The position numbers and the translations under genes were made by a program. Shown here piece by piece: positions 12,980 through 55,394 of a DNA stretch of 64,000 nt (position 1 is the first letter of the stretch; each line of letters begins with the position of its first letter). Source of the DNA: a bacterium. GTDB taxonomy: Bacteria; Zhuqueibacterota; Zhuqueibacteria; Residuimicrobiales; Krinioviventaceae. The stretch is from assembly GCA_029561455.1 (NCBI GenBank), contig JAKQIY010000076.1:81838-145837 (forward strand). The letters run 5' to 3'. The notes beneath the pieces were generated by a model. It was given only the letters and a program-made list of their open reading frames with translations, did not search any database and was not told the DNA's origin.

Positions 12980-13773
12980 TGCTGCTCTTCTTTACTTTTA
13001 AGAATCAACACATGCTCAAGCCTGGAATAATCAACCTGGGGTTTGATGACAAGAATATGGAACAGGCGATTAGGGTCGCGCCTGATGCCGGTAACATGGC
13101 CGATGACTATCCCTTCCGGGAAAAACGAACTGGTTCCCGCGGTAATGATCTGTTCGCCGGTTTTTACATGAACCGTTTGCGGCACTCCCCACATGATCGG
13201 TTTTTCTTCGCCGGTGCCTTCAAAAATGCCGGTATAACGTGATTCGGTTAACCGGGCAGCGGCGCGAAAGTTTTTATCGACCAGCAACTGGCCGATGGAA
13301 TAAGAACCGGCAACGCGTATTATTTTCCCCGCCAGTCCGGCGCTGGCTATAAAAGGCATATTTTCTGCTATTCCCTTATCACGCCCGGCGTCCAAAATCA
13401 CTGCTTTAATTCCGCCTGCGCCCTCAAATCCTGTAACCCGCGCGGCGACATTATCGCCGGGCAGGTATTGTTGCAGATCGAGTAATGCCAAAAGCCTTTT
13501 ATTTTCAATTTCAACATTTTGCAATTGCGAATTGTCGTATAAAAGCCTGATGTTTTCTTCATGCAGGCGCTGATTTTCGGTACGCAGATCGTGCACCTGT
13601 CGCAGTTCGGCGACCGGTGATAAAACCTTGCCCAGAATATTCAGAGTAAATGTATATAGTGCGCTTTCTTGTCCGCTTTGGTGGGCGGATATAAGTATGA
13701 TCAATGAAGCGATTATAGTCATCGCCAGGACAAAGAAATCACCCCATGGTATTTTTTTTATGCGATTCGACAA
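12976..13773 (-). CDS. mreC: Rod shape-determining protein MreC
   Basis: The C-terminal two thirds match MreC. The longest ORF (to 13902) overlaps lpxH by 116 nt and its first 45 codons look non-coding. I place the start at TTG 13773 (GGGAA 6 nt upstream, 13 nt after the lpxH stop), which yields (M)SNRIKKIPWGDFFVLAMTIIASLIIL: a short cytoplasmic tail then a TM segment, typical of MreC. ATG 13722 is the alternative. Confidence 0.75.
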   Translation of the reverse strand: MSNRIKKIPWGDFFVLAMTIIASLIILISAHQSGQESALYTFTLNILGKVLSPVAELRQVHDLRTENQRLHEENIRLLYDNSQLQNVEIENKRLLALLDLQQYLPGDNVAARVTGFEGAGGIKAVILDAGRDKGIAENMPFIASAGLAGKIIRVAGSYSIGQLLVDKNFRAAARLTESRYTGIFEGTGEEKPIMWGVPQTVHVKTGEQIITAGTSSFFPEGIVIGHVTGIRRDPNRLFHILVIKPQVDYSRLEHVLILKSKEEQQ

Positions 13774-13786
13774 ATCATATTCCCGG

Positions 13787-14566
13787 TTATTTGCTTTGCA
13801 TATTGCCCGGCGGCAATGTAATTTGGAACCGCTCCCCCGCGCCGTTGCGCCAACGCAACACTTCCGGGACGCCATTTTCAATAACTGCAAAAGTAAAATC
13901 ATCCATCCAGTAACCGGGATTTATATACCATCCATTCCGGTATTGCTGAAGCGCCGGCCAGTGGGTATGTCCGAGTACTACAAAATCATAGCCTTCATCA
14001 ATGCGGGCAAAAGCGAATTCCCGATAATCCATATCGGAATAACCGGAACGGTCTTTGGAGGCTTCCCGGCTCAGATGTGAGCAAAACAGGGCTAAGGGTA
14101 TGCCCAGGTCGGGGTGCAGCATTCGGTACAGGAAGGTGTTCACTGGGCTGCGCAGTGTCTTTTTCATAGCCCGGTAGAGATGATCTTTTTTCAATAATCC
14201 ATCACCGTGTTTAATAAATATTTTATAATTATCATTAGCGATTACGTGGTCATCGGGGTGCAGGCGCAAACCGACCTCATTTTTCATAAACGAACCCAGC
14301 CAGAAATCATGATTCCCGGCCATATAATGAATCTCCTTACCTGACCGGCAAAGGTTAGCCAATAATGAAATAATATGAAAATGCCGTTGCGGTATAGCAT
14401 GCCGATACTCGAACCAGAAATCAAACAGATCGCCAACAATCACCAAAACAGCATTCTGACCGGCATAATATTCTAAAAAGGAAACAAGCTGTTCGGCTTT
14501 GCGGGCTTCTTTTTCCAGGCTCTGGGCGCCCAGGTGAGCATCGGAAAGAAAAAATATTTTACTCAT
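13787..14566 (-). CDS. lpxH: UDP-2,3-diacylglucosamine hydrolase-like metallophosphoesterase
   Basis: MSKIFFLSDAHLG...LVIVGDLFDFWFEY...GNHDFW metallophosphatase motifs typical of LpxH. Start moved to the internal ATG at 14566, which has a better N-terminus. Confidence 0.7.
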   Translation of the reverse strand: MSKIFFLSDAHLGAQSLEKEARKAEQLVSFLEYYAGQNAVLVIVGDLFDFWFEYRHAIPQRHFHIISLLANLCRSGKEIHYMAGNHDFWLGSFMKNEVGLRLHPDDHVIANDNYKIFIKHGDGLLKKDHLYRAMKKTLRSPVNTFLYRMLHPDLGIPLALFCSHLSREASKDRSGYSDMDYREFAFARIDEGYDFVVLGHTHWPALQQYRNGWYINPGYWMDDFTFAVIENGVPEVLRWRNGAGERFQITLPPGNMQSK

Positions 14567-14765
14567 CACATTTATCCATTTTTTTGAACTATTAAAATAA
14601 ACAAACATGGCTTTAAATGCAAGGCCGGAATGCAGTTAGCAAGCCAATTGCTGAAAATAAGCGCCGTGCCAGACCTGGATTACTTAAAAAGAGTTGACAA
14701 ATAATTAAAAGTTTATTACTTTTTAACTTACATACATCAATTTTTTAAAATAGCAGAATAAAAAA

Positions 14766-15068
14766 ATGGAGGCACAATTGACTATGGAAGCATTAGGACT
14801 GGTAGAAACTCGTGGATTTATTCCCGCCATCGAAGCGGCTGATGCAATGGTAAAAGCGGCAAACGTTCAACTGGTTGGCACCGAACGGGTAGGCAGTGGT
14901 TTAGTCACCGTTATTGTCCGTGGAGATGTCGGCGCAGTTAAAGCTGCAACCGATGCCGGCGCAGCTGCTGCTGAAAAAGTTGGCGAACTGGTTTCCGTTC
15001 ATGTCATTCCCAGGCCTCATTCCGATGTTGAACAGATTTTACCCAAAGCCAAAGCTGCTGTAAAATAA
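14766..15068 (+). CDS. Bacterial microcompartment shell protein, BMC-H (PduA/EutM/CcmK family)
   Basis: [86 protein letters not shown] is near-identical in motif content to canonical PduA; possible start at the second Met (14784). Confidence 0.85.
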
Positions 15069-15193
15069 TTATTTAAGGCTCTGAATTATTATTACACTAT
15101 TCAGAATATAACGGCTTGAATGAAATCCCGTCATATAATTATTGTCGGAAATATAATGGTAAACCTATGCCCATGCTGAAAACAGGAATGTGA

Positions 15194-16051
15194 GTGCAAG
15201 TTCAATCTTTTGCCAAAATAAACCTGGGTTTGAGAATTCTGGGAAGACGTAATGACGGCTTTCATGAATTGGAAACAATTTTTCAAACCATCAGCTTGCA
15301 CGACGACCTGGAAATAAACCCGGCGGAAAAAGAGATAACCTTACAAGGGGACTCGCCGGGTTGCACGCCGGAACAAAACCTGGTCTATAAAGCGGCGCTA
15401 TTATTAAAACAATACTGTAATGTCGAACGGGGGTGTGACATTACACTTAAAAAAAGAATTCCGGTCGGCGCCGGTTTGGGCGGCGGCAGCAGCAATGCGG
15501 CAGCAACACTTGTTGCCCTGAACACACTGTGGCATACCGGCCTAAGCACAGCAACACTTTTGCAGCTTGCTGGTAAACTTGGCTCCGATGTTCCTTTCTT
15601 TATTATTAATGGAACGGCTTTGGGTCAAGGCAGAGGGGAAATTTTAACGCCAATCGATCTTGCCCTGCATTATCATGGGGTGCTGGTATGCCCGGATTTA
15701 CATATAATAACAAAAACAGCTTATGAATTGCTTAATTTTAGCTTGACAAAGTCATTTAAAAAAAGTAAATTTAGTGTCTTGACAAGATGGAAAACCGATA
15801 TTAAGATCTGGAATTTAGTACTTGTCAATGATTTTGAACCAGTAATATTTGACGCTTATCCTGAACTGGGTGAGATATTTCAGGAATTAAAAAAGCAGGA
15901 TGCGTTTTATTACCGGATGTCAGGAAGCGGTTCAACACTGTTTGGTTTGTTTGAAAATGAACAAAAGGCATCACAAGCCCAGCAATATTTTCAGAAAAAA
16001 TATCAGACATTTGTTTTTACACCGCGTTACCAACATACAGAAAGTAACTGA
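15194..16051 (+). CDS. ispE: 4-diphosphocytidyl-2-C-methyl-D-erythritol kinase
   Basis: GTG start; FAKINLGLRILGRRNDGFHELETIF...PVGAGLGGGSSNAAA GHMP-kinase motifs. Confidence 0.9.
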   Translation: MQVQSFAKINLGLRILGRRNDGFHELETIFQTISLHDDLEINPAEKEITLQGDSPGCTPEQNLVYKAALLLKQYCNVERGCDITLKKRIPVGAGLGGGSSNAAATLVALNTLWHTGLSTATLLQLAGKLGSDVPFFIINGTALGQGRGEILTPIDLALHYHGVLVCPDLHIITKTAYELLNFSLTKSFKKSKFSVLTRWKTDIKIWNLVLVNDFEPVIFDAYPELGEIFQELKKQDAFYYRMSGSGSTLFGLFENEQKASQAQQYFQKKYQTFVFTPRYQHTESN

Positions 16052-16073
16052 ATCCGGGTTAATAAAATTATTT

Positions 16074-16145
16074 TGGGGCGTCGTCAAGCGGAAAGACTCA
16101 GGATTTTGGATCCTGCATTCGGAGGTTCGAATCCTCCCGCCCCAG
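16074..16145 (+). tRNA. tRNA-Gln (anticodon UUG)
   Basis: Cloverleaf folded by hand: acceptor TGGGGCG/CGCCCCA, U8, 3-bp D-stem GTC/GAC (as in E. coli tRNA-Gln), anticodon arm CAGGA-TTTTGGA-TCCTG (anticodon TTG), T-arm GGAGG-TTCGAAT-CCTCC, discriminator G; CCA not encoded. Confidence 0.85.
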
Positions 16146-16157
16146 CAAGGTTCTTAA

Positions 16158-16188
16158 AATGACGAACGTGTTTATTCGTCATTTTTTC
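16158..16188 (+). terminator. Rho-independent terminator after tRNA-Gln
   Basis: ATGACGAA-CGTGTTTA-TTCGTCAT hairpin followed by TTTTTT. Confidence 0.7.
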
Positions 16189-16281
16189 GTTACACTATAT
16201 TTATTAATGACTTTTTCAATGCCCTGCTGATTAAGGGTATTAATGAACTGATGTTTTGATAATCTTTAAATAACTTTTTGA

Positions 16282-17250
16282 ATGGTGAATTCATCAAAAA
16301 CGCCCGAAATAAAAATTTTTTCGGGGCGCTCAAATCCCGGCCTGGCTGAAAAAATAGCTTCAAGTATGAACAGACCTTTAGACCAGGTGGAAATCAAAAA
16401 TTTCTCCGATGGAGAAATTTGGGTCAAGTATAAAGAAAATATCCGGGGCACCGATGTTTTTATCATTCAACCGACAAATGCTCCGGCAGAGAATCTGCTG
16501 GAATTATTAATAATGATCGATGCGGCGCGGCGTGCATCGGCTTCCTCCATAACGGCGGTTATTCCCTATTTTGGCTATGCCCGTCAGGACAGGAAAGACC
16601 AGCCCAGAGTTGCGATTAGTTCCAAACTGGTAGCGAATCTGCTTACAAAAGCCGGCGTGAACCGGGTATTAACAATGGATTTGCATGCCCCGCAAATCCA
16701 GGGCTTTTTCGATATACCACTGGATCACTTGTATGCTGCAACAATATTTATCGATCATATTAAAAAGCAAAACCTGCCGAATCTGGTGGTAGCCTCGCCG
16801 GATATTGGCGGCATACATCTGGCCCGCGCGTACGCCAGCCGGCTGGGTTCAGACCTGGTCATGATGAACAAACGGCGCATTAAACATAATGTCTGCTGTG
16901 TTACGGAACTGATAGGCGATGTGCGGGATAAAAACGTTCTGGTTGTTGATGATATGATCGATACCGCCGGCACCTTGGTAAACGGGGTAAAAGTTTTAAA
17001 AGAAAAAGGCGCCAATGATATTTATGTAGCATGCACACATGCTCTGTTATCCGGCAACGCAGTGGAACTGATAAAAAATTCAGAGATAACTAAAATATAT
17101 TGCAGTAATTCCACCAATATACCGGAACATAAACAACTTGATAATATGGAAATCCTCTGTATCTCCAGATTATTCGGAGAAGCCATAACACGTATACATG
17201 AAGAGCGATCGATTTCCGATTTGTTTCCACAAAAAGGACCAATGCATTAA
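16282..17250 (+). CDS. prs: Ribose-phosphate pyrophosphokinase
   Basis: IKIFSGRSNPGLAEKIA...; PRPP-binding motif VVDDMIDTAGT. Confidence 0.95.
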   Translation: MVNSSKTPEIKIFSGRSNPGLAEKIASSMNRPLDQVEIKNFSDGEIWVKYKENIRGTDVFIIQPTNAPAENLLELLIMIDAARRASASSITAVIPYFGYARQDRKDQPRVAISSKLVANLLTKAGVNRVLTMDLHAPQIQGFFDIPLDHLYAATIFIDHIKKQNLPNLVVASPDIGGIHLARAYASRLGSDLVMMNKRRIKHNVCCVTELIGDVRDKNVLVVDDMIDTAGTLVNGVKVLKEKGANDIYVACTHALLSGNAVELIKNSEITKIYCSNSTNIPEHKQLDNMEILCISRLFGEAITRIHEERSISDLFPQKGPMH

Positions 17251-17295
17251 AATAAAAATACTGATACAAAGCAGATAAATATATGGAGATATGAA

Positions 17296-17943
17296 ATGTC
17301 ACAACTATCGTTGACGGTAGAAACCCGCAAAGAGACGGGCAAGCAATATGCAAAAAAATTAAAACGGGATGAAAAAATACCCGGCGTCTTTTACTTTCAT
17401 GGCAAGGAAAATATTCCTCTAACTGTAGGTCTGAAAGATGTCCAGGCGCTGGTGGGTAATGAAAGCGGTATAGTCAAAGTGCTGCTGGATGGCAAGCATG
17501 AAAAGAACTGTATCATCAGAGAAATTCAATATCATCCCATCACCGCCAGGCCGATTCATATTGACCTGATGGGTATTCTAATGACGGAAAAAATTCACGT
17601 CAATGTCCCTGTACATTTGACGGGTATAGCCAACGGCGTAAAGAATTTTTCCGGTATCTTGCAGCACAATACCCGCGAACTCGAAGTACTGTGCTTGCCG
17701 GCCGACATTCCCCAATTTATTGAAGTTGATGTAACCAATTTGGGAATTGGCGATTCGATTCATGTGTCGTCAATTAAAATGGATAAAATTGAATTCCTGA
17801 ACGACCCCGATACGGTAATTGCATCAGTCGGCGCTATGCGGGTAACTGAAGAACCTGTTGCTGCCGCTGCATTAACCACAGAAGACGCTGCAAAAGAACC
17901 GGAACTGATTACCAAGGCGCCGCAGGAAGAAAAGAAACCATAA
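17296..17943 (+). CDS. rplY: 50S ribosomal protein L25 / general stress protein Ctc
   Basis: 215 aa L25-Ctc form with a C-terminal acidic/Ala-rich extension; conserved order prs-rplY-pth. Confidence 0.9.
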   Translation: MSQLSLTVETRKETGKQYAKKLKRDEKIPGVFYFHGKENIPLTVGLKDVQALVGNESGIVKVLLDGKHEKNCIIREIQYHPITARPIHIDLMGILMTEKIHVNVPVHLTGIANGVKNFSGILQHNTRELEVLCLPADIPQFIEVDVTNLGIGDSIHVSSIKMDKIEFLNDPDTVIASVGAMRVTEEPVAAAALTTEDAAKEPELITKAPQEEKKP

Positions 17944-17969
17944 TCCGGTGATGCTAAACTGGTAAGTAG

Positions 17970-18551
17970 ATGTCCAATACATATTTGATAACCGGACTTG
18001 GAAACCCCGGACGCCGGTATAGCAAAACCCGTCATAATGCAGGATTCATGGTTATTGATAGAATTATATCAACATTTAATGGTTCTTTGGAAAAAACAGG
18101 CGGACTGGCGGAAGTTGCCCAAGTAACAATTGCCGATGTACCGGTGATGGTTGCAAAGCCGCAAACCTATATGAACAATAGTGGTTTAGCTGTCAAAGCC
18201 CTGTTACAACATCTAAATTCAAGTTACGATCACTTGCTGGTCATATATGATGATATTAATCTTGAATTTGGCCGTTTAAAAATTAAAGGCAAGGGCAGTT
18301 CCGGAGGGCACAATGGAATGGAATCAATTCTGTTCCATTTAGGGACAGATGAATTTGCACGGTTGCGTATCGGCATCGGTCAAACAGCAATGCCGCATGA
18401 TATGGTGCGCTTTGTGTTATCAGGCTTTACCGCAACTGAACGGCGCCAATTGCCTGATTTAATAGATTTTGCAGAAAAGGCCGTTATCAGTTTTTTAACC
18501 ACAGGTCTGGAAAAAACTATGAATACATATAATACAAAATTGAATAAATAA
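17970..18551 (+). CDS. pth: Peptidyl-tRNA hydrolase
   Basis: YLITGLGNPGRRYSKTRHNAGFMVID... canonical Pth. Confidence 0.95.
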   Translation: MSNTYLITGLGNPGRRYSKTRHNAGFMVIDRIISTFNGSLEKTGGLAEVAQVTIADVPVMVAKPQTYMNNSGLAVKALLQHLNSSYDHLLVIYDDINLEFGRLKIKGKGSSGGHNGMESILFHLGTDEFARLRIGIGQTAMPHDMVRFVLSGFTATERRQLPDLIDFAEKAVISFLTTGLEKTMNTYNTKLNK

Positions 18552-18571
18552 TCCTATCAGGAGGAGTAAAC

Positions 18572-19042
18572 TTGCGTAAATACGAAACCATATTTGTAAT
18601 TGATTCGTTATTGAAATCCGACGAGATCGAAAACATAATTACCAAATATGAAAAATTTATCTCAGCAAACGGCGGACAAATTGAAACCCTGGAAAAGTGG
18701 GGTAAAAAAAGATTAGCTTTTGAAATTAAAAAGAGACAATATGGATATTATGTCTTTATACGTTTCGATGGCAGCCCGTCGATGATCAAACCCCTGGAAC
18801 GGGAATATCGCTTGAATGAATCAATTTTACGCTATAAAACGATCATTTTATCTACCATGGCGTTGAAAGCGCTGGCTATACAACAGGCAATGGGATATAC
18901 GAAAAAGCATACGGAAGAACCTGCCGAAACCAGTCCCGCAGCAGCTTCGTCATCAGATAAAAACGATAGCGATATAATTTTACCGCAGGAGAGTGATTCG
19001 TCACGTGCCGATCAATTTGCTGAAGAAAAAACAGAAAATTGA
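18572..19042 (+). CDS. rpsF: 30S ribosomal protein S6 (with acidic C-terminal tail)
   Basis: TTG start after GGAGGAG RBS; MRKYETIFVIDSLL... typical S6; rpsF-ssb-rpsR-rplI operon. Confidence 0.9.
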   Translation: MRKYETIFVIDSLLKSDEIENIITKYEKFISANGGQIETLEKWGKKRLAFEIKKRQYGYYVFIRFDGSPSMIKPLEREYRLNESILRYKTIILSTMALKALAIQQAMGYTKKHTEEPAETSPAAASSSDKNDSDIILPQESDSSRADQFAEEKTEN

Positions 19043-19130
19043 ATGATCGCTTGATATTTGCAGATAAATTTTGTAATATTATTAAATATATCCAAACGGG
19101 TTTTATAAAAAAGGCCATAGGAGCAGGTAT

Positions 19131-19658
19131 ATGTCCGAATTGAAAATGCCTGATATCAATAATGTGCTGATTGCCGGGAATTTAACGAGCGATCCGGTAT
19201 ATAGAAAAACCAATAATGGAACAGCTGTTACAAATTTCTTTATTGCATCTAATCGAAAATACCGTGATAACTCCGGGATATGGCGGGAAAACCTTTGTTT
19301 TGTAGGTGTTGTAGCCTGGCATAGATTAGCGGATACTTGTAATGAAATTTTGAAAAAAGGTAGCGCCGTATTAATTGACGGAGAATTACAGAGCAGAAAC
19401 TGGCGCAACGAAGACGGTACCAGCAGAAATGTAGTAGAGATACGCGCCAGAAGAATCCAATTTCTGGATAAAGCGCTTTCTGCAGAAGTGGAAGAATTTG
19501 CCTCTCAGGAATTGGATGATAAAAATTTAGTATCAAACGATGAACGTGCCAATATATCACACCCGCTCCCGGAAGAGAATCTGCCTGTTGAACCGGTCAA
19601 GGAGATCAAGGTAGAACCAACGGAATTTGATTTTGGTTATAAAAATTTGAATCTATAA
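19131..19658 (+). CDS. ssb: Single-stranded DNA-binding protein
   Basis: OB-fold N-terminus; C-terminal acidic tip ...EPTEFDFGYKNLNL analogous to the DDDIPF tail. Confidence 0.9.
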   Translation: MSELKMPDINNVLIAGNLTSDPVYRKTNNGTAVTNFFIASNRKYRDNSGIWRENLCFVGVVAWHRLADTCNEILKKGSAVLIDGELQSRNWRNEDGTSRNVVEIRARRIQFLDKALSAEVEEFASQELDDKNLVSNDERANISHPLPEENLPVEPVKEIKVEPTEFDFGYKNLNL

Positions 19659-19679
19659 TTTATTATAAAAGGAGTGTTT

Positions 19680-19901
19680 ATGCTCAAAAAGAAAAGGATT
19701 TGCAGGTTTTGTGAAGAAAAAATCTTGTATATCGACTATAAAGACGACAAAAAGCTGCAACGCTTTACAACCGAACAGGGGAAAATAATTCCCCGCAGAA
19801 CATCGGGCACTTGTGCAAAACATCAGCGGCAGTTAGTTACTGCTCTGAAACTGGCCAGAGAAATTGCTTTGATCCCCTATGTTGCAGACTTGACCAAATA
19901 A
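19680..19901 (+). CDS. rpsR: 30S ribosomal protein S18
   Basis: [14 protein letters not shown]...[30 protein letters not shown]; start placed at ATG 19680 (AAAGGAG RBS 5 nt upstream) rather than the GTG at 19674. Confidence 0.9.
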
Positions 19902-19920
19902 AATTTACAGGAAAGGTAAT

Positions 19921-20364
19921 ATGAAAGTTATATTAAAAAAAGATTTTGATACTTTGGGTAAAGCCGGAGATATTATTGAGGTTAAACAAGGTTATGCAAG
20001 GAATTTCCTGATTCCCTCCAAAGTAGCAATAGCCGCCACACCCTCAAACCTGCAATCTTTTAAAGAAGAAAGAAAGTTACTTGAAAAACGCGAATTAAAA
20101 GGGAAAAAAGAAGCCGAGTTATTGGCAGCAAAACTGGATAAAGTATCCCTCACCGCAACTGTTCAGGTTGGTGAAGAAGATAAGGTTTTTGGTTCGGTAA
20201 CAAACCAGAATATCGCCGATATGCTAAAAGATCAGGGTTATGAAATTGATCGTAAAAAAATTCAGTTAGATGAACCCTTGAAGGCATTGGGCGTTTATGA
20301 TATTCCTATAAAGCTGCATCATGAGGTAGAAGCCAAAGTTAAAGTATGGGTGGTTAGAGACTAG
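19921..20364 (+). CDS. rplI: 50S ribosomal protein L9
   Basis: MKVILKKDFDTLGKAGDIIEVKQGYARNFLIP... canonical L9. Confidence 0.95.
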   Translation: MKVILKKDFDTLGKAGDIIEVKQGYARNFLIPSKVAIAATPSNLQSFKEERKLLEKRELKGKKEAELLAAKLDKVSLTATVQVGEEDKVFGSVTNQNIADMLKDQGYEIDRKKIQLDEPLKALGVYDIPIKLHHEVEAKVKVWVVRD

Positions 20365-41128: not shown

Positions 41129-44128
41129 TTAACCTACATCTGTTCTTACTTTATCAAACAACCAATCCAGTAAATACCTTGCAAAATTGCGATCATCGGT
41201 AAAGCGTTTGTACAAGTTAAAATTTGATTCAACAAACTCCTGCATACGTTCCTTGACCACATTATCAAAGGTAAGCCTGGCATTTTCCGGTGTATTCGCT
41301 TTAAGGCTGGCATGGATAACCGGATTTTCAACAAATTCCTGTTTAAGCTGTTGAAAAATAATTGTGTCTTTATCCGTAAAATTCGTACCGAACCGTTCAT
41401 TTAATTGTTTGATGATTTGCGACAAGGGTTCGATATCCTCATCCAACGGTTTGTGGGATTTTTCTTCATCTTCCGGGTTTAATACGCTCTGTTCCTGTTT
41501 TAATTTAATTGCTACACTTTTACCTTTTTTCACCCGGTAAGTAGCCATATCCACCATGCCCTGGATTTCCCGGGGCAGTTCATCTTTTAAAGGCGGTAGA
41601 TAACGAAGCAGCAACCGGGCGAATACATACATTTTTTCCAGATCGGCATCGACAAAGGTGATGATCTGGGATAAAAACGAATACAGCCGCACATAATCCT
41701 GCAGTTGTCCGCGCAAATCGGTTTGTTCTTCTGTGATTAAAAGTTTAAAGCGGTCGCTAAATGGGGCTAAAAAATGGTAAAGTTTATTCAGCTTGGCATT
41801 AGGCACAAAATATATTTGCGCGAATTTCTGCAAATCCATTTCGGAAATCAAGTGAAAATCCAAAATCCGCCGATACAGATCGTACAAGAGTTGTGGGTCG
41901 GTGGATTCGGAAAGAATTGTTTTTTCATAATAAGGCTGAAAGGCTTTTTGGATGTCATCCGCTTCATTACAAAAATCCAGTATCATGGTTTCGTGTTTAT
42001 CCGGGGGACAGATACGGTTCAGGCGGGATAAGGTTTGTACAGCATTCACCCCGCTAATTCGCTTGTCCACATACATGGTATGCAAAAGTGGTTGGTCAAA
42101 GCCGGTCTGGAATTTTTCCGCCACAATCATAAACCGATATTCCAGGCTTTTAAAAGTTCTGGCTGTCTGCGTTTCCGAAATACTATTCATATTGCCTTCA
42201 GTATATTCTTTTCCATCTAGAGGTATTGAACCTGAAAAAGCTACCAGCGCCTTGTATGGGTATCCCATTTCCTGAAAATATTGATCTATTGTTAATTTGT
42301 ATTGAACAGCATTAGCGCGAGACCTGGTTACGATCATTGCTTTTGCTTTATTTTGAATGCGATACGCTACGTTTTCATGAAAATGCTCGACCATAATTTC
42401 AAGTTTTTGCCGTATAGCATCGGGATGTCCCTCGACAAAGCGTTTTAATAAACTCGAAGCCTTGTTACGGTCAAACTTGGGGTCATCCTTAATTTTTTTC
42501 AGTAATTTCCAATAAGTTTTATAGGTAGTATAATTTTCCAATACGTCCAATATAAACCCCTCTTCTATGGCCTGGCGCATACTGTACAAACTGAAAGGTT
42601 CAAACGAGCCATCCGGTTGTTTAGCGCCAAAAAGTTCCAGGGTTTTAGGCTTGGGCGTGGCGGTAAAGGCAAAAAAGCTGACATTCGGTTGTCGACCCCG
42701 CGCCTTGATCTCGGCAACTATACGATCCTGCACGTCTGCCGCTTCTACCTCATCCTCTTGTTCGTTATCTTCACTGGTTGGGGAGGATAAAACTTTTTTC
42801 AGACTTTTGGTGGCCTCGCCGGTTTGGGAGGAATGGGCTTCATCGATGATTACCGCAAAGCGATGTCCGTCCATTTCTTTCATGTCATCTGCAATAACCG
42901 GGTATTTTTGCAAGGTGGACACAATAATATTTTTACCTTCTTCAAGGGCTTTTTTAAGTTGTTGGGCGGTACTGGTGATATTTTCCACAACTCCGAGCGT
43001 CTGTTCAAATTGCCGCATTGTGCTTTGTAATTGCCGGTCCAACACCCGCCGGTCGGTAATAACGACAATTGTATTAAATACCCGTTGATCCGCCTCGTCA
43101 TGCAGCACTGCAAGCTGGTGCGCCAGCCAGGCAATGGAATTGGATTTACCGCTACCCGCCGAGTGCTGGATCAAGTATCGGTGACCCGGTCCATGTTGCC
43201 GGGCATGATCTACAAGCCGCCGTACGCAGTCCAGTTGATGGTAGCGTGGAAAGATGATGGATTTTTCCCCGGTGAGTCTGCCGTCTTCATCTTCCATTTC
43301 GATTTCCGTTATAAACTGCTGGACAAGATTGAGCACACTATCCCGGGTCCAAATCTCATCCCATAAATATGAGGTGGCAAATCCCTGCATAGCCGGAGGA
43401 TTGCCGGCGCCGCCGAACTTGCCGCGATTAAATGGTAAAAACCGCGTGCGTTTCCCTTCCAGTTTTGTCGTTACATAAACCAGGTCGGGATCGATGGCAA
43501 AATGCGCCAGGCAGCGGCGGAAAGCGAATAATAACTCTTTGGGATCGCGGTCATTTTGGTATTGCTGAATAGCGTGCTTGACGTTCTGACCGGTTAACGG
43601 ATTTTTAAGTTCGGCGGTAATTATAGGTATGCCATTGAGAAACAACACCATATCCAGACAATTTTCGTTTTTGAGGCTGTATTTCAACTGACGAACGATA
43701 CTGAACTGGTTGGCAAGGTACAGCCGTCGGGTATCCTCGTTCAGGCCGGAGGAAGGTTTATAGTATGCCATTTGAAATTTACAGCCGTAACTACGCAAGC
43801 CGGAACGCAGTACTTTGAGCGCGCCGTATTTATCCAGATCCCGGCTCAGTAATTTCGCAAACTGGTTTTTGGCTTGCTCGCGGTGCTGATCGCAAAATTT
43901 CTGCCAGTCCTGCGGCTGGGTGGCGCGGATAAAGTTTATGGCGTCCTCCGCAATGATGCCCAGAGTACGGTCATAGTCTTCCGGTTGGCGTTTGATGTAC
44001 CCCTTGCTGTGCGGTATATTATAAGGAACGTCGGTCTCTTTAAAACGAGTATCGCTGCCGGTTTGTGGAACAGGATTAGTCAGAGACTCTTCAATTGAAT
44101 TTTCAAACGCTTTTTCAGAAATATTCAT
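41129..44128 (-). CDS. hsdR: Type I restriction enzyme R subunit
   Basis: 999 aa; SF2 helicase motifs (SAGSGKSNSIAWLAHQL Walker A; VIIDEAHSS DEAH box); N-terminal nuclease region; typical HsdR length. Confidence 0.95.
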   Translation of the reverse strand: MNISEKAFENSIEESLTNPVPQTGSDTRFKETDVPYNIPHSKGYIKRQPEDYDRTLGIIAEDAINFIRATQPQDWQKFCDQHREQAKNQFAKLLSRDLDKYGALKVLRSGLRSYGCKFQMAYYKPSSGLNEDTRRLYLANQFSIVRQLKYSLKNENCLDMVLFLNGIPIITAELKNPLTGQNVKHAIQQYQNDRDPKELLFAFRRCLAHFAIDPDLVYVTTKLEGKRTRFLPFNRGKFGGAGNPPAMQGFATSYLWDEIWTRDSVLNLVQQFITEIEMEDEDGRLTGEKSIIFPRYHQLDCVRRLVDHARQHGPGHRYLIQHSAGSGKSNSIAWLAHQLAVLHDEADQRVFNTIVVITDRRVLDRQLQSTMRQFEQTLGVVENITSTAQQLKKALEEGKNIIVSTLQKYPVIADDMKEMDGHRFAVIIDEAHSSQTGEATKSLKKVLSSPTSEDNEQEDEVEAADVQDRIVAEIKARGRQPNVSFFAFTATPKPKTLELFGAKQPDGSFEPFSLYSMRQAIEEGFILDVLENYTTYKTYWKLLKKIKDDPKFDRNKASSLLKRFVEGHPDAIRQKLEIMVEHFHENVAYRIQNKAKAMIVTRSRANAVQYKLTIDQYFQEMGYPYKALVAFSGSIPLDGKEYTEGNMNSISETQTARTFKSLEYRFMIVAEKFQTGFDQPLLHTMYVDKRISGVNAVQTLSRLNRICPPDKHETMILDFCNEADDIQKAFQPYYEKTILSESTDPQLLYDLYRRILDFHLISEMDLQKFAQIYFVPNAKLNKLYHFLAPFSDRFKLLITEEQTDLRGQLQDYVRLYSFLSQIITFVDADLEKMYVFARLLLRYLPPLKDELPREIQGMVDMATYRVKKGKSVAIKLKQEQSVLNPEDEEKSHKPLDEDIEPLSQIIKQLNERFGTNFTDKDTIIFQQLKQEFVENPVIHASLKANTPENARLTFDNVVKERMQEFVESNFNLYKRFTDDRNFARYLLDWLFDKVRTDVG

Positions 44129-44213
44129 ACCGTACTACCCCTTTAATCAGTTTATTTGCTCTTTAACCAGCTTCTATTTACAATTTAAGTGATTCCTGGA
44201 TATATTACAATAC

Positions 44214-44666
44214 TCAATTCGGTGTAAACAACTGTACATTAACCTCCGGTAGTTCCTGGAATACTTTTAAGATCATTTCATTAACCTTGTTCCAATTCAA
44301 GCCGCCCAGGCCGCAGCCAAGCGGCGTGATAGCAATGGAGCAAATCCCGTATTCTTTTATCACTGTTACCAGGTCTTGCAGGCCGGTTTGAATATCTTCA
44401 TATCGACTGTCCGATTTCCAGTGTTTTTTGGTCGGGAAATTAATAATATAACGGGGATTGATTAAGGTGTGCCGATCAAACACAAACATTTTACCTAATT
44501 GCAGTTCGTTTTGTATACAAGCATTTTCATAGGCATTAAAATTATCGGGAAATGCTTTTTTGAACTGCAAAGCTAATCCTTTACCCATAGTACCAACAGT
44601 ATTAACTGTATTGACCAATGCTTCCGCATCGGCTTTTAATATATCACCAGTTATAGATACAATCAT
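44214..44666 (-). CDS. Macrodomain protein, TARG1/DarG-type ADP-ribose glycohydrolase-like (150 aa, macrodomain only)
   Basis: GDILKADAEALVNTVNTVGTMGKGLALQFKKAFP...ITPLGCGLGGLNWNKVNEMILKVF parallels the TARG1/DarG macrodomain (catalytic Lys in the MGKG context; GCGLGGL phosphate-binding loop); ATGA overlap with the hsdS stop. Confidence 0.75.
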   Translation of the reverse strand: MIVSITGDILKADAEALVNTVNTVGTMGKGLALQFKKAFPDNFNAYENACIQNELQLGKMFVFDRHTLINPRYIINFPTKKHWKSDSRYEDIQTGLQDLVTVIKEYGICSIAITPLGCGLGGLNWNKVNEMILKVFQELPEVNVQLFTPN

Positions 44667-46015
44667 TCTACCATTTCCCGCACATCTATCTTGCCGGTAA
44701 CCGCCGCAGAGATAAGCGCCGCGCGGTATTCCTGCAATTTTTCAATACTGGCTTGGATTTTTCCGACAAGATTATCAATTTTAGCTGTTTCGTAATCAAG
44801 GTATTCTGCAATAGCGCGTTGTTCAAGATAGGGTGGAATTGGAATTTTAATATTTTTTAACTCAAAAGGGGTAATCGCTGGATAACTAACTCCGTTCGAT
44901 AGAGCAACAACTTTCTGAATAAAATATTCTGATTGAGCAAGTCTAAATAAATATTTCGGAAAAAGGTATATAGGTTGAAAAACAGCAAAACCAGTAGACA
45001 CTATAATTGTATCAGCATTATTAGTGATAAAAGAAATTGCTTTTAAATAAGTTCTAACAGTTGATAAGATAGTATCACCGATTTTAACACATCTTCTTGC
45101 TCTTGAAGGTGCTTCTTTAAAAGTTAGGGTATTACTAATATAATTTCCAATATTATCAACACTACTTATATCGATGTATTGGAATTCAAAATCTTGATAT
45201 GTTAATTCAGGTAATTCTTTATTGTTCACTAAAGCAATATATTTAACCTTTTTCACCTCCCACCCCTCCGGAATTTCTCCCAGCCACTCAATGCCGGAAT
45301 CTTTCATGGGCGCGGCGGGGTTCAGACCTTTGGTTACAGCGCGGGTAATGAGCGCGGCGCGTTTCTCCCGCAGCAGATCGATGAGCCGCTGCTTTTTTTC
45401 GATTAGCGCGTCCAGTCGGGCAGTTTCGTGGTCCAGGAAAGCGGCAATAGCGTTTTGTTCGGGGAGAGGAGGACATATTACATAAAGCTCCCGAAGTTCG
45501 GATTGATTAAATGTATTATTAACACCAGCCTTCACTGATTTAAAAAAACCAGTATATCTAAGATTATTAATAAACTGATGAAAATAATTTGAAGAATACA
45601 AAGTGTAATCAAATCTTATTCGTAATAAAAATGAAACATGTGTATATTTATCATTACTATAAAATACAGCTGTTTTCCCAACATGTTCTGAACTTCCATT
45701 ACGCCAATTAAATAATAAATCCCCATTTTGTAAAATTAATGATTTTTCAATATTTTCTTCAATTATTCCAGAAAAGGCAACCTCTTGTAAGTTCAAGTTC
45801 CCATCAATTAGAACATTAGGTAAACTTATAATAGGGATTCCAGTACTAATAGTTCTATCTAATTCTGTGCCTATTCCGTAGGATATGTTGGCGATTCTTT
45901 TTAATTTTAATGTTATCCAATGAACCGGAATTTTCCCCAGCCAGTCAATTCCGGAGTTCTTGTAAGCCGGACAAGGCCGGTGTTTATATAATGTATGGAG
46001 ATTTATGGCTGCCAT
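44663..46015 (-). CDS. hsdS: Type I R-M specificity subunit
   Basis: Two target-recognition domains separated by a conserved central coiled region; duplicated N-terminus/mid motif (GIDWLGKIPVHW / GIEWLGEIPEGW). Confidence 0.9.
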   Translation of the reverse strand: MAAINLHTLYKHRPCPAYKNSGIDWLGKIPVHWITLKLKRIANISYGIGTELDRTISTGIPIISLPNVLIDGNLNLQEVAFSGIIEENIEKSLILQNGDLLFNWRNGSSEHVGKTAVFYSNDKYTHVSFLLRIRFDYTLYSSNYFHQFINNLRYTGFFKSVKAGVNNTFNQSELRELYVICPPLPEQNAIAAFLDHETARLDALIEKKQRLIDLLREKRAALITRAVTKGLNPAAPMKDSGIEWLGEIPEGWEVKKVKYIALVNNKELPELTYQDFEFQYIDISSVDNIGNYISNTLTFKEAPSRARRCVKIGDTILSTVRTYLKAISFITNNADTIIVSTGFAVFQPIYLFPKYLFRLAQSEYFIQKVVALSNGVSYPAITPFELKNIKIPIPPYLEQRAIAEYLDYETAKIDNLVGKIQASIEKLQEYRAALISAAVTGKIDVREMVE

Positions 46016-48054
46016 TATTGATTCATCTCCCCCAGCATATCCAATATCTCTTTTTCAATCTTTTTAATATCCGCCTCGATCTCTTCCAGTGGGCGCGGCG
46101 GGGTATAGCGGTAAAAATAACGGTTAAAGTTGATCTCGTATCCCACCTTGCCCACCTCGCCATCCTTGTGATCGACAATGGCGGTATTGATCCAGGCGTC
46201 GGCGACAAACGGTTTGACTTCGCGGTCAAAATAATCATACACGGATTCGGACAGCGGTACGCTCTCGGTATCGCGTAGTTCCAGGTCCGCTTCGGGGTTG
46301 CCGTGGCTGTCCAGGCAGACATCGGCCGTTTCATCCCGCTCCGCCAGGGCGTTAAGTATGGCTTTTTTCAAAGGCGCTGCTGGTTTGACCGGTTTCAGAG
46401 CAGTGTCAATCAGTTCGCTGAATTCATCGCGGTTTTTATATAATGTATCCGGCAGGATGCGCAACAGGGCAAGTATCTGTTCCTGTAAATCTCGTCCGGT
46501 CTTTTCCTCCTGCTCTTTAATTTTCTTTTCTTTCTTTTTGCTGACGGCCAGGTTAATAAAGGCATTTTCACTACCCAGCCGTTGCAGGCGTTCTTCCGTC
46601 ACCTGAAAATTAAGGCGCAGCGGTCGTTCCACGGTGATTTTGCGAAAGCCGAAAAAGGTGGTCGGCACAATTTTACAATATTCATTTTCTTTAAAAAGTT
46701 GGTAGAGTTTTAATATTTCGGCAGCTTTTTCCGCAGGGATTTCCCGTCGTTTATCGCCCATGCTTTTGCGCATTTGCGTCCAGAAGGAAGAAGCGTCGAT
46801 CAATTGCACTTTACCAAGGCGTTGTTTTTCTTTGCGGTTACTTAATATCCAGATATAGGTAGAAATACCCGTATTATAAAATAATTGTTCCGGCATAGCA
46901 ATCAGCGCTTCCAGCCGGTCATTTTCCAGAATCCAGCGGCGGATTTCACTTTCACCGCTGCCGGCGTCGCCGGTAAACAATGGCGAGCCATTCATAATAA
47001 TTGCCACCCGGCTTTTATCATGTTCCGGGTTGTGAATATGGGACAACATGTGTTGCAAAAACAATAACTGGCCGTCGCTGATGCGGGGCAGACCGGCGCC
47101 AAATCGCCCTGCATAACCTTTTTCATATTCCTCCTGCACCGCGTCTTCATCCCGTTTCCAGTCCTTGCCGTACGGCGGGTTGGCGATGAGGTAATCAAAG
47201 TGTTTGCCGAGGTGACAATCATGGGCCAGGGTACTGCCGAAACGAATGTTTTCCGCATCACGTCCATCGGCAGATTTGATGTATAAATCGGATTTACAGA
47301 TGGCATACGTTTCAGGATTGACTTCCTGACCAAACAAGTAAATATCCGCCTGTGGATTGAGACCCGGTCGCCCGTCGCCGAGAATGTGGTCTTTGGCTAT
47401 AGTCAACATGCCGCCGGAGCCGCAGCAGGGATCGTAAACGGTAAGGGTCTTGCCGGGAATTGTAATTCGTTCCTCATCCCCGGCCAGTAACAGGTCCACC
47501 ATCAGGTGCACTACATCGCGCGGGGTAAAATGTTCGCCGGGGTTTTCGTTAAGCGATTCGTTAAACTTGCGAATCAATTCTTCGAATATAGTGCCCATCA
47601 TGACGTTGGAAACCTGGTCGGGTTGTAACCTGGCATTTTTAAAACGTTCCAGGACTTTAAATAACAAACCCGCATCATCCAGTTTATGAATGGTATTATC
47701 AAAATCGAATTTTTCCAAAACTTCGCGCATATTGGGAGAAAAGCCGTTGATGTAATTGCGCAGGTTGGCGGCCAGTCCTGAAGAATCATCTAATAATTTG
47801 CTAAAATCATATTGCGAGGTATTGTAAAATGCATATCCCGAAGCCTTGCGTAACAGTTGATCGGGATTATCCAGCTTACCGGCGTATTGGGCATTGGTCG
47901 CCAGGACTTGACGTTTTGTGGCTTCCAGCACACAATCCAGACGCCGCAATACGGTCAGGGGTAAAATAACATCCTGGTATTTACCGCGTTTAAAAGTATC
48001 ACGGATAAGATCCGCTACTCCCCAGATAAAACTGACAATTTCACTGTGATTCAT
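46015..48054 (-). CDS. hsdM: Type I R-M N6-adenine DNA methyltransferase subunit
   Basis: N-terminal HsdM_N domain; SAM motif I (DPCCGSGGML); motif IV NPPYG (ANPPYGKDW); 1-nt overlap with hsdS. Confidence 0.95.
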   Translation of the reverse strand: MNHSEIVSFIWGVADLIRDTFKRGKYQDVILPLTVLRRLDCVLEATKRQVLATNAQYAGKLDNPDQLLRKASGYAFYNTSQYDFSKLLDDSSGLAANLRNYINGFSPNMREVLEKFDFDNTIHKLDDAGLLFKVLERFKNARLQPDQVSNVMMGTIFEELIRKFNESLNENPGEHFTPRDVVHLMVDLLLAGDEERITIPGKTLTVYDPCCGSGGMLTIAKDHILGDGRPGLNPQADIYLFGQEVNPETYAICKSDLYIKSADGRDAENIRFGSTLAHDCHLGKHFDYLIANPPYGKDWKRDEDAVQEEYEKGYAGRFGAGLPRISDGQLLFLQHMLSHIHNPEHDKSRVAIIMNGSPLFTGDAGSGESEIRRWILENDRLEALIAMPEQLFYNTGISTYIWILSNRKEKQRLGKVQLIDASSFWTQMRKSMGDKRREIPAEKAAEILKLYQLFKENEYCKIVPTTFFGFRKITVERPLRLNFQVTEERLQRLGSENAFINLAVSKKKEKKIKEQEEKTGRDLQEQILALLRILPDTLYKNRDEFSELIDTALKPVKPAAPLKKAILNALAERDETADVCLDSHGNPEADLELRDTESVPLSESVYDYFDREVKPFVADAWINTAIVDHKDGEVGKVGYEINFNRYFYRYTPPRPLEEIEADIKKIEKEILDMLGEMNQ

Positions 48055-48384: not shown

Positions 48385-50037
48385 TTATTTCTGCAATGTC
48401 ATCATCTTGCTGGAAACAAAATCCCCGGCGGTGATGCGGTAAATATACGTTCCCGATGCCAGGCCGGCGCCGTCAAAGGTCACCTGGTTCAAGCCCGCAC
48501 CTCTTTTGCCTTTGCACAAATCGCGGACTTTTTGTCCCTGAATATTAAACAACTCGATTTTCACTTCCAGCGGTTTGCTGAGAGAAAACTCGATGGTGGT
48601 AACGGGATTGAACGGATTTGGATAATTCTGCCGCAACTGGATGGAACTGACCGTTGCCGCGGCATTGTCATCAATCCGCACCGGTTCGGGATTGTTCAGC
48701 TTGTTCTGCGCAAACACCCAGGGGAACAGGTACGGATAATCATACGATTCCGCCCACATCACATGACTCTTGTTTTCCCATTCGGTATACAGCAGCCGGG
48801 CGCCGCCTTCGGTAACCGCCTGCACTTCGGCGTCGCTCATGCCGGTGCAGTCGCCATAATTGCAATGCGTGTACACGCAATCCAGGCCCTGGCGTTCCAG
48901 CGCTTCAATCATCTTGCGCGATTCCGAAACCGGTACGGTATTATCCACTTCGCCATGGAAATTCCAGATGGGAATGTGTTTGATGCGCTGCACCTGGGTG
49001 GAATCGCCGCCGCCGCTCATGGGAATGGCGCAGGCAAATTTATCCGGAAAACGCTGTATGGCGTCCCATGTGCCATAACCGCCCAGGGACAGTCCGGTAA
49101 CATATAGCCGGTTTTCATCGACCGGGAACTCGCGGATCAGCGAATCGAGCATATCCATGACGCAGGTCATTTCATTGCTGATCGGCACTTCAAAGATGCG
49201 ATATGAATCGCGATTGTTAAAGTCATAATCATTCCAGGCGCCATCGGTCGGGCATTGCGGCACCACCACAAAGCAGGGATAATTTTTCTGGTTGGCGCTA
49301 TCCGCCCAACTGGTTGCCAGGCGATGCACGGAAATCGGCAGTTCATTATCCGTACCGCATTCCCCGGAGCCATGCAGCGCCAGCACTAACGGATAGGATT
49401 GATTCGGATCATATCCATCCGGAATGCACAGGCGATATGGCAGGGTGGTTTCGGTAAAGGTGTGCGAGCGATAATGGAATTTCTCTTCGATACGGATATG
49501 ATTGGGATCATCAGTTTCCGTTAATACAATAGCGTCCAGGTTCACTGTAACGCCACTTGTACCACCCAGGTTAAACTGTACCCGGTAATTCTGGTCAGAG
49601 CCATAATAATTAAGAGTGTATGGGCCAAAGGTTTGCGGGGTAGTGGTAAGAACAAGTTCCGGAGAACTCCATATAACAGTGTAATCGCCTGAACTTTCCA
49701 TGAACATGGCATGAATGGGATGTTCCATACTGGCGGAAGCCATAAAGCTGAATTGATATATCCGACCTTGTTCAAAAGGCCGGGATTGGTATACGATAAC
49801 ATCGCCTTCTGCTGACCCACCATTGGTAATAGATATTGCAAGGTAATTGGGGCCGGAAAGTAACCCATCACTATTTACAACGCTGGTATAAGCAGCTGGA
49901 TTGATTTTTTTCATCAGCCAACCGGTTTTACCGGAATCGAATTCGGGATTGGAAATGATATTATCCTGCGCCCACAAGATAATGGGAGTTAAAAATAAAA
50001 GGACAAACAGAATGATTCTTTTCATATCATGCTCCAT
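48385..50037 (-). CDS. Secreted alpha/beta-hydrolase (PHB-depolymerase/feruloyl-esterase-like) with C-terminal T9SS (Por_Secre_tail) sorting domain
   Basis: Signal peptide; esterase nucleophile elbow GLSLGGYG with LALHGSGE oxyanion-region motif; C-terminal 80 aa carry the hallmark NYPNPFNPVTTIEFSL...GTYIYRITAGDFVSSKMMTLQK. Confidence 0.8.
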   Translation of the reverse strand: MEHDMKRIILFVLLFLTPIILWAQDNIISNPEFDSGKTGWLMKKINPAAYTSVVNSDGLLSGPNYLAISITNGGSAEGDVIVYQSRPFEQGRIYQFSFMASASMEHPIHAMFMESSGDYTVIWSSPELVLTTTPQTFGPYTLNYYGSDQNYRVQFNLGGTSGVTVNLDAIVLTETDDPNHIRIEEKFHYRSHTFTETTLPYRLCIPDGYDPNQSYPLVLALHGSGECGTDNELPISVHRLATSWADSANQKNYPCFVVVPQCPTDGAWNDYDFNNRDSYRIFEVPISNEMTCVMDMLDSLIREFPVDENRLYVTGLSLGGYGTWDAIQRFPDKFACAIPMSGGGDSTQVQRIKHIPIWNFHGEVDNTVPVSESRKMIEALERQGLDCVYTHCNYGDCTGMSDAEVQAVTEGGARLLYTEWENKSHVMWAESYDYPYLFPWVFAQNKLNNPEPVRIDDNAAATVSSIQLRQNYPNPFNPVTTIEFSLSKPLEVKIELFNIQGQKVRDLCKGKRGAGLNQVTFDGAGLASGTYIYRITAGDFVSSKMMTLQK

Positions 50038-54700: not shown

Positions 54701-55002
54701 TTGAAGGGATTGGGGTAATTTTGATACAAAATGAAAGAACCGGGCTGCCGGGTGATGACGTCGCCAATGCCGGTGGGGATGATTTGAAGCGAGTATTCGC
54801 CCTGGTCATTGGTCACATTACTGAATACCCGTGTCGAATCCGCCTGGTCGATCAGTTCCACCAGGGCGCCTTCTACCGGTTCATTGCCATTATCTCGTAC
54901 CACGCCGGTGACAATAATGTTCGCGAACAGGGTTTGACAAAACATAGCCACAAATCCAGCTATGAGATAAAAACGCGCGCTGTTAAACATAAAACCTCCC
55001 AC
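51787..55002 (-). CDS. Secreted multidomain protein: CarboxypepD_reg-like, Por_Secre_tail-like (N-proximal), Fn3 domains and three FISUMP (Fibrobacter succinogenes major paralogous, TIGR02145-like) domains
   Basis: Signal peptide; QNYPNPFNPSTVISYEL...VWNGTNEQGQGVSAGVYIY...KMLLLDG at aa 90-180; three repeats of the FISUMP signature (W)WMAENL...LYNW.A...APxGWHVPTDxEW..LE..LG...GG.LKE.G..HW..PN.GATN.SGF.A.P.G.R......G..A.YWS.T......A........GFSVRCVRN. Confidence 0.8.
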   Translation of the reverse strand: MGGFMFNSARFYLIAGFVAMFCQTLFANIIVTGVVRDNGNEPVEGALVELIDQADSTRVFSNVTNDQGEYSLQIIPTGIGDVITRQPGSFILYQNYPNPFNPSTVISYELARPSPIRLEIYNVLGQKIKTLFDGYQSGLYGRIVWNGTNEQGQGVSAGVYIYSLIAGDTRLTRKMLLLDGHTGVIETVGQSTTASAPGGSIGLGKTASDLYLLRVSGADIETIIQHDLQIISNMTNDITVLRTVTDFDGNVYHTVKIRDQWWMAENLRVTHYNNGAVIAGITDSTQWADLFTGAYGCYHNDDNYATDYGLLYNWYALIDSNNIAPAGWHVPTDAEWKQLEMTLGMSQADADKIGWRGTTEGGKLKESGEAHWNSPNSGATNESGFAARPSGFRDCNTGGYTKMGTDAHYWSATESDANTAWRRKLVYNGADIARGNLDKHYGFSVRCVRNTAPQIIPNPPSLVAPVNGAANIEVNTYLSWNEVSNVDFYNLQVATDSIFTTPVVEENSLITTTFQLTNLTEGTTFYWRVNAINAVGVSDWSAVWSFTTTAQGFLTDIDGNVYHTVKIGDQWWMAENLRVTHYCNGEEIAGITDSTQWAGLTSGAYGCYQNDNNYAADYGLLYNWFALIDSNNIAPDGWHVPTDTEWKQLEMALGMSQTDADKVGWRGTTEGGKLKEAGEAHWNSPNTGATNESGFTARPGGFRDSNTGGYSKMGTDAHYWSATEGDANNAWRRKLVYNGSDIGRGNLNKHYGFSVRCVRNTVPHIIPNPPGLVSPVNGSANIDLNTYLIWSEVANVDFYNLQVANDSLFTTPVLEENGLVTTSFQLTNLSEDTTYYWRVNATNAAGTSAWSQNWRFTTITYERGTVTDIDGNVYQTVKIGDQWWMAENLQVTHYRNGDAIPNITDDSEWFNSSTGAWCYYNNDIANAADYGVLYNWFAVNDSSNLAPVGWHVPTEAEWKLLEITLGMNQYEADRSGHRGVTEGGKLKETGTRHWREPNTGATNYSGFTARPGGQRDMFGGFFNIYSFAYFWTASEYHTDYSWQRSLSYGLSVVNRIGDSTHFGLSVRLVRD
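52200..54060 (-). repeat. Intragenic tandem duplication (about 930-bp unit, two copies at roughly 90% nt identity, plus partial third) inside the FISUMP gene
   Basis: For example 52591-53130 aligns with 53521-54060 base-for-base with scattered substitutions (...ccaggcgttattggcgtcaccctcggttgcggaccaatagtgggcatcggttcccatttt... versus ...ccaggcggtattggcgtcgctttctgtggcgctccaatagtgggcgtcggttcccatttt...). Confidence 0.8.
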
Positions 55003-55394
55003 AAGAAATATAAATTTTATGAGAAATCACATTTTGCAAGGAGCAGCCATGTCATAATGGAAGGGGAATGATTAAATATCGTAAAGTTCCCGGTTGTTTG
55101 CAAGGGGAATTTGGCAAAACAGAAACTTTTTTATCTTTACGGTTGCGCCGGGATTCATATAGCGGGGCTGGAAATGGGTAGGATGAGATTCTATCCCACC
55201 ATTACAAAAACCAAAGTGTTCTGTATAAAATGATTTATCCGCAGATGACGCAGATTAACGCAGATTTGATTCTCAGAAACCTTGAAGTATATATAACAAT
55301 TACTTATGTAGAGACAAGGCATACCTTGTCTCTACAAAGAAGATCTTTTACGAACCGTGATATGAAACCCGGCCCGTTTGGTTAATAAAATAGC

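Follow-up and report, generated by a model that had tools for sequence, protein, structure and literature searches.

A solitary BMC-H shell-protein gene kept at one chromosomal position in low-GC KSB1 bacteria, a probable piece of a dispersed microcompartment gene set

What is a single gene for a canonical microcompartment (BMC) shell hexamer doing between a metallophosphoesterase gene and ispE, where no other microcompartment gene is found nearby? We approached this question in a 64-kb stretch of DNA, referred to throughout as the window, and in related loci from other genomes and metagenomes. Selection and synteny argue that the gene is functional and that its chromosomal position is conserved within a low-GC clade of KSB1 (Zhuqueibacterota). 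With moderate confidence, we favour the reading that it belongs to a dispersed microcompartment gene set, FRAG-like or satellite-like in its organization, and that it is expressed constitutively. The features on which the argument depends are the following.

13787..14608, minus strand: LpxH-like metallophosphoesterase gene (Pfam Metallophos), divergent from the BMC-H gene
14686..14722, plus strand: conserved 37-nt upstream block, AAAAAGAGTTGACAAATAATTAAAAGTTTATTACTTT, a likely core promoter and possibly also an operator
14694-14699, plus strand: TTGACA, putative -35 element, inside the 37-nt block
14717-14722, plus strand: TACTTT, putative -10 element, separated from TTGACA by a 17-nt spacer
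14768-14772, plus strand: Shine-Dalgarno sequence GGAGG, 11 nt upstream of ATG 14784, invariant across a five-lineage alignment
14784..15068, plus strand: BMC-H shell protein gene (PF00936), canonical PduA/EutM-type single-domain hexamer subunit of 94 aa
15194..16051, plus strand: ispE (TIGR00154, 236 bits against a cut-off of 139), the next gene downstream of BMC-H
16074-16146, plus strand: tRNA-Gln (anticodon TTG), between ispE and prs
16074..20364, plus strand: housekeeping string of tRNA-Gln(TTG), prs, L25, pth, S6, ssb, S18 and L9

The original prediction placed the gene alone between lpxH, on the opposite strand, and ispE. The position holds and the identity of ispE is firm, its score lying above the cut-off, but the left neighbour could be confirmed only as LpxH-like. 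The LpxH equivalogs are its best NCBIfam matches at 98 bits against a cut-off of 134 bits, and because the score lies below that cut-off we keep the looser name. The string that continues leftward from this gene comprises mreC, mreD, PBP2, rodA, lgt, an outer-membrane protein, a TPR protein and glgA. At the other end, a YbbR protein gene and tsaD come after L9 on the same strand.

The longest open reading frame of the BMC-H gene (14766..15068, plus strand) encodes 100 aa, the length first given for the protein. It matches PF00936 (BMC) with an E value of 7.2e-31 (106 bits) over residues 9-84 and model positions 1-75 of 75, and this single domain covers most of the frame, as is characteristic of single-domain BMC-H proteins. 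The frame of 100 aa exists, but a shorter product is likelier. In an upstream alignment of five lineages ATG 14784 is conserved and ATG 14766 is not, which together with the conserved GGAGG favours the downstream start, and the product is most likely the 94-aa protein beginning MEALGLVE. Most relatives are annotated with a start of this type.

The PduA/EutM-like motifs quoted in the original prediction are indeed present. Over its full length the protein is about 80% identical to both C. difficile EutM (4AXJ) and S. enterica PduA (3NGK), and its alignment with the two structures is collinear (non-permuted). The edge residues K24, N27 and R77 (PduA K26, N29 and R79), the PRPH motif and the pore loop G37-S38-G39 are all retained, and clade-specific differences are limited to T33 and R35, beside the pore loop, and to the C-terminal tail. 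The score against the NCBIfam EutM equivalog, 131.9 bits, falls under the cut-off of 133 bits. Judged by these residues, the protein is a standard shell hexamer subunit with almost no clade-specific change, and we infer that it would assemble into hexamers able to tile as sheets or shell facets. It is like PduA and EutM (3NGK, 4AXJ, 3I6P) in its single PF00936 domain, its length, its edge K, N and R residues, PRPH and the GSG pore. It differs from them in its surroundings, since the gene lies outside any pdu or eut operon, with no signature enzyme, BMC-P, BMC-T or regulator nearby, and in its host, an uncultured FCB-group bacterium.

Two variations were seen among the relatives. One KSB1 lineage (P0010; L089:10001-10285 and L090:5387-5671) carries IPHPH, not IPRPH, a His replacing the edge Arg that corresponds to PduA R79 and matters for the contacts between hexamers. 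At the position of ispE, L090 is called as two short open reading frames (165 and 118 aa), possibly a frameshift or an assembly error.

The isolation of the gene was examined at several levels. In Pfam scans of all large open reading frames of the window, BMC-P, BMC-T, aldehyde dehydrogenase, PduL and signature enzymes were all absent. The window was also scanned in six frames, with filters off, using a BMC-H profile and a BMC-P profile built from 63 loci of other bacteria, and this BMC-H domain was the sole match. Both results bear out the earlier statement that the window holds no BMC-P, BMC-T or signature enzyme. The 10 kb past the left window edge contain an exopolysaccharide gene cluster and no BMC genes. 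This excludes, on the near side, a complete BMC locus just outside the window, the arrangement that had been named as one that would make the gene ordinary. In all, no other BMC gene comes within about 24 kb of the BMC-H gene on its left or about 49 kb on its right, and the gene therefore does not lie at the edge of a BMC locus. The locus contains one shell-gene class only (PF00936, no PF03319), which is one of the marks of a satellite locus (Axen 2014; Sutter 2021). The components that would identify a PDU or EUT metabolosome, namely diol dehydratase, ethanolamine ammonia-lyase, AldDh, PTAC and BMC-P, are absent from the window and its left flank.

Several other features of the window are of separate interest. 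A complete type I restriction-modification system occupies 41129-48054 on the minus strand (HsdR of 999 aa, HsdS of 450 aa, HsdM of 679 aa), and between its hsdR and hsdS genes lies one for a macro-domain protein of 150 aa. Also on the minus strand, 51787-57623 and 48385-50037 encode two large proteins in which Fib_succ_major domains are repeated and a peptidase that bears a Por_Secre_tail domain (T9SS sorting); such Fib_succ_major and Por_Secre_tail proteins fit an organism of the FCB superphylum. At 58447-63489, again on the minus strand, a large helicase of the Lhr type (1502 aa, with an AlkZ-like C-terminal region) adjoins a DUF4258 protein (166 aa).

The gene order, with a divergent LpxH-like gene followed by BMC-H, ispE, prs, L25, pth, S6, ssb, S18 and L9, is identical in every KSB1-type relative retrieved, and the LpxH-like neighbour is present in all KSB1 loci. 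The loci with this order, which include L001-L006, L087 and L089, come from a 6.5-Mb circular contig and a 3.6-Mb contig from ENA (L001/L002), from GCA_964399735.1 (L003), from GCA_016934825.1 (L087), whose NCBI name is 'candidate division KSB1', and from JGI and Logan contigs. The closest BMC-H homologues, at 87-99% identity, form a distinct group, the next of the best 120 matches listed being at most 85% identical. The window's species is abundant, and assembles well, in anaerobic digesters (JGI 3300009780 and 3300025882; the ERZ795059 study).

Within this block BMC-H is the most conserved gene, with 93% protein identity between the window and L001 as against 38-80% for its neighbours (Prs 78%, L9 72%). 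Four comparisons gave it a dN/dS of 0.025-0.07, and its dN is the lowest in the block. Its synonymous divergence is the lowest as well (pS 0.36 versus 0.46-0.69 in the comparison with L003; L087 and L089 were also compared), which may reflect either codon constraint from high expression or an exchange among KSB1 lineages more recent than that of the neighbours. The gene is intact in every relative and under strong purifying selection, which excludes the frameshifted, decaying remnant that the original prediction had allowed for. That prediction had also singled out the gene as GC-richer than its neighbours. This is correct for total GC, which at 0.498 is the highest in the block (neighbours 0.36-0.49), but it does not mark an unusual gene, as GC3 is 0.337 and among the lowest. 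The excess comes from an Ala/Gly/Val-rich composition and so is not evidence of foreign origin. A foreign origin argued from GC was rejected, GC3 being host-like.

Conservation extends upstream of the gene. The 37-nt block has 0-3 substitutions in 13 of 13 orthologous KSB1 loci, and the remainder of the intergenic region is unalignable. No other copy of the block occurs in the window, and it is absent from every non-orthologous locus fetched. It is likely a core sigma-70-like promoter, maybe with an operator. The TTGACA box that had been noticed at 14693 is there and is invariant in all orthologous KSB1 loci, though its first base is one position further on. A promoter consensus scan did not call the block because the -10 element matches at only 3 of 6 positions.

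Neither a terminator-like site nor a stable hairpin was found in the 125-nt gap from BMC-H to ispE, nor after the stop codon in any lineage. Because no terminator follows the stop codon, transcription of BMC-H may run on into ispE and beyond, with BMC-H as the first cistron. An Rfam scan of 13500-16500 returned the tRNA-Gln only, with no riboswitch or leader. The conserved promoter block and Shine-Dalgarno sequence, the place of the gene at the head of a housekeeping string and the lack of a terminator suggest that expression of BMC-H is probably constitutive and strong. It could also be that the block is conserved for the sake of ispE and the ribosomal genes rather than for the shell gene.

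Loci of a similar kind were found in other phyla. Two Gemmatimonadota-like contigs (L091:589-3307 and L093:8656-11400; their relatives are named Gemmatimonadota) carry an LpxH-like gene divergent from BMC-H, which is followed by a gene for a 175-aa BMC protein and by PduL. Their BMC-H is 81-83% identical to that of the window, and the LpxH-like neighbour 38% identical. No BMC-P was found within 10 kb of the Gemmatimonadota-like BMC-H, and the surroundings are housekeeping genes. This FRAG8-like fragment is thus like the window locus in its divergent LpxH-like neighbour, its housekeeping setting and the lack of BMC-P within 10 kb. It differs in having a second, C-terminally extended BMC and PduL, where the window has neither and carries ispE instead, and it does not share the 37-nt promoter block of the KSB1 loci. 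The Gemmatimonadota-like PduL carries an N-terminal extension. The pairing of an LpxH-like gene with BMC-H thus recurs in two phyla, without explanation.

A third contig has the order YfhO, BMC-H, a 170-aa BMC protein, YbbR and PdxJ. On four chromosomes of Candidatus Poribacteria (L043, L049, L052 and L053) a BMC-H gene whose product is 74-77% identical to that of the window is the sole BMC gene within 10 kb on either side. The solitary BMC-H of Poribacteria agrees with the description of FRAG2, and the chromosomes are closed. Scattered BMC pieces were seen in related FCB lineages.

Satellite loci and the 'FRAG' types were defined in the BMC catalogue of Sutter 2021 (PMC8217296). In FRAG organisms shell genes lie in up to six places, remote from the enzymes, together with a BMC-P triplet, and the hosts belong to Ignavibacteriae-related and candidate phyla (PMC8217296). 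FRAG3 includes LCP-89 and a candidate-division member printed as 'KB1' in the supplement (PMC8217296), which we read as KSB1. The same catalogue gives the KSB1 MAG 4484_87 a MIC4 main locus, and describes satellite loci as common and proposed to tune permeability (PMC8217296). Satellite-like loci may stem from constitutive expression of BMCs, for which clustering would be unneeded (Axen 2014, PMC4207490).

Our locus is like FRAG, especially FRAG3, and like the satellite-like loci of Poribacteria and BRC1, in consisting of a lone BMC-H with standard interfaces, remote from enzymes and from other shell genes, in a candidate phylum related to the FCB group. FRAG types are defined by a BMC-P triplet and comprise further scattered pieces; in the genome of the window, the solitary BMC-H is the one piece located. 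The fixed site heading the ispE/ribosomal string, the promoter block with its invariance and the lpxH-like neighbour that recurs do not figure in the FRAG descriptions in the portions of PMC8217296 considered here. The beta-carboxysome satellites CcmK3 and CcmK4 and the BMC of Haliangium ochraceum are likewise cases of functional shell genes away from the main locus. In those systems, however, the main locus and cargo are known, and CcmK3 and CcmK4 are divergent paralogues, unlike the standard-type gene of the window.

Where could the partners of such a protein be encoded? Of 44 KSB1 MAGs, 33 have K04028 (eutN, BMC-P), usually at 2-3 copies, and the other 11 lack it (PMC9012183 supplement); these counts apply at the level of the phylum. 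fucA occurs in most of the KSB1 MAGs and the PduL-type K15024 in a few (PMC9012183 supplement). The supplements of the Zhuqueibacterota paper contain no BMC KOs.

Candidate cargo genes exist in other members of the phylum. In higher-GC KSB1 lineages (L095:915-11560, GCA_034505895.1; L103-L126) genes for an isolated acylating AldDh, PduL and a 261-aa protein lie in conserved order. The AldDh, of 533 aa and above the cut-off of TIGR02518, has a C-terminal tail of 70-80 aa that closes with an amphipathic helix and ends SGEQVDKIVSEFVKTRRK. The neighbouring PduL, of 250 aa, has a 50-aa C-terminal extension, likewise amphipathic, containing ITENDVRRAILEKRRI, and the third protein, of 261 aa, matches no family. 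About 7 kb from these genes is one for a class II aldolase that also carries a tail. From their form, the tails of the AldDh, PduL and aldolase look like encapsulation peptides. No shell genes were found within 10 kb of these loci in more than 20 populations.

These loci were nevertheless rejected as part of the BMC-H clade, as their composition assigns them to other, higher-GC lineages: their GC is about 0.52, and their tetranucleotide correlation (r) with the window is 0.5-0.56, compared with 0.86-0.97 for true relatives. By protein accessions, no MAG was common to the AldDh-PduL locus and the solitary BMC-H; P0242 and P0236 come from other MAGs. A short PduL from the same metagenome as the window's species (L158) was likewise rejected as a partner, its composition being unlike that of the window.

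A query with PduL returned KSB1 PduLs, none of them on the 6.5-Mb or 3.6-Mb contigs among the best 120 matches listed. The 175-aa BMC protein had 19 homologues in 5.8 billion sequences, none on KSB1 contigs. No BMC-H paralogue from the same long KSB1 contigs was among the best 120 BMC-H matches listed. In a BMC-H search of a genome collection, KSB1 genomes were absent from the matches listed, most of which were PDU, EUT and GRM loci of Firmicutes.

According to the reading we favour, the BMC-H hexamer would be a facet-forming shell tile, inherited vertically at one chromosomal site in the low-GC KSB1 clade. Its own sigma-70-like promoter block would drive constitutive, strong expression, with read-through into ispE and the housekeeping string. 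Unlinked sites elsewhere in the genome would hold the BMC-P genes, typically three in number, as well as those for any cargo enzymes, and the hexamers would co-assemble with the products of these genes into a shell. Both the partner genes elsewhere in the genome and the assembly of a shell are what we infer. The evidence for partners is at the level of the phylum, consisting of eutN in KSB1 MAGs and AldDh-PduL in other KSB1 lineages. Counting against a dispersed gene set, no BMC-P, second shell or cargo gene was found in the stretches examined around the solitary BMC-H. The original suggestion of a satellite shell gene is favoured here in the form of a FRAG-like or satellite-like fragmented organization; the locus does not resemble a satellite of a conventional PDU or EUT locus.

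A rather unlikely alternative is that the low-GC KSB1 clade lacks BMC-P and encapsulated cargo, and that BMC-H stands alone, forming sheets, tubes or pentamer-less cages, for example as a cytoplasmic scaffold or other housekeeping structure. That no partner is encoded in the roughly 24 kb on the left or 49 kb on the right, or within 10 kb in any relative, is consistent with this, as is the failure of the PduL and 175-aa BMC queries to match the clade's long contigs among the matches listed, although absence among the best 120 matches listed is weak evidence. A quarter of the published KSB1 MAGs are without eutN, but most carry two to three BMC-P genes. The gene heads a housekeeping string with no terminator, and the conservation of protein and promoter is extreme, above that of the ribosomal proteins of the same block. 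However, BMC-H is highly conserved everywhere, and its conservation here is therefore not special to a stand-alone role. Moreover, all residues for normal shell tiling are kept, with almost no clade-specific change. We know of no natural BMC-H-only system, and a search of the literature found none. The more specific proposal, that the clade's BMC-H is a housekeeping protein without pentamers or cargo, co-expressed with ispE and the ribosomal genes in a structural or scaffolding role, strikes us as distinctly improbable.

We also doubt that the gene is an ordinary satellite of a conventional main BMC locus elsewhere, such as a MIC4-type locus as in KSB1 4484_87, with the BMC-H copy tuning shell composition or abundance in the manner of CcmK3 and CcmK4. 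Satellite loci are common and tuning of permeability has been proposed for them, and our locus has the 'insufficient shell complement' by which they are recognized. A tuning paralogue would, however, be expected to differ at the pore or the edges, and the BMC-H of the window is standard; nor did the best 120 BMC-H matches listed include a paralogue from the same long contigs. In related FCB lineages, furthermore, the enzymes and the shell genes are themselves scattered.

A recent transfer, or a decaying remnant of a lost BMC locus with no current function, might be read from the total GC above that of the neighbours and from the missing second BMC and PduL of the Gemmatimonadota-like lineage, which is compatible with past loss of neighbours, but we consider it extremely improbable and effectively refuted by selection and synteny, as BMC-H is intact in every lineage sampled with the low dN/dS given above, GC3 matches the host, the promoter block and Shine-Dalgarno sequence are conserved, and the position is the same in lineages that share only 38-80% identity in the neighbouring proteins.

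Among bacteria of the FCB group and of candidate phyla, fragmented BMC loci are common and have been called 'enigmatic', their signature enzyme, regulation and function being unknown. The locus in the window is a clean case of this kind, a standard hexamer gene at a fixed site, with a near-invariant promoter block, at the head of essential genes. The pattern fits the older suggestion of a constitutive, rather than induced, production of such compartments. The fixed position, the promoter block and the LpxH-like neighbour in two phyla are a useful handle on the expression of fragmented BMCs. If the partners are absent, the shell protein would have a non-compartment role, and a housekeeping BMC-H, if that reading is true, would be the first natural BMC-H-only system.
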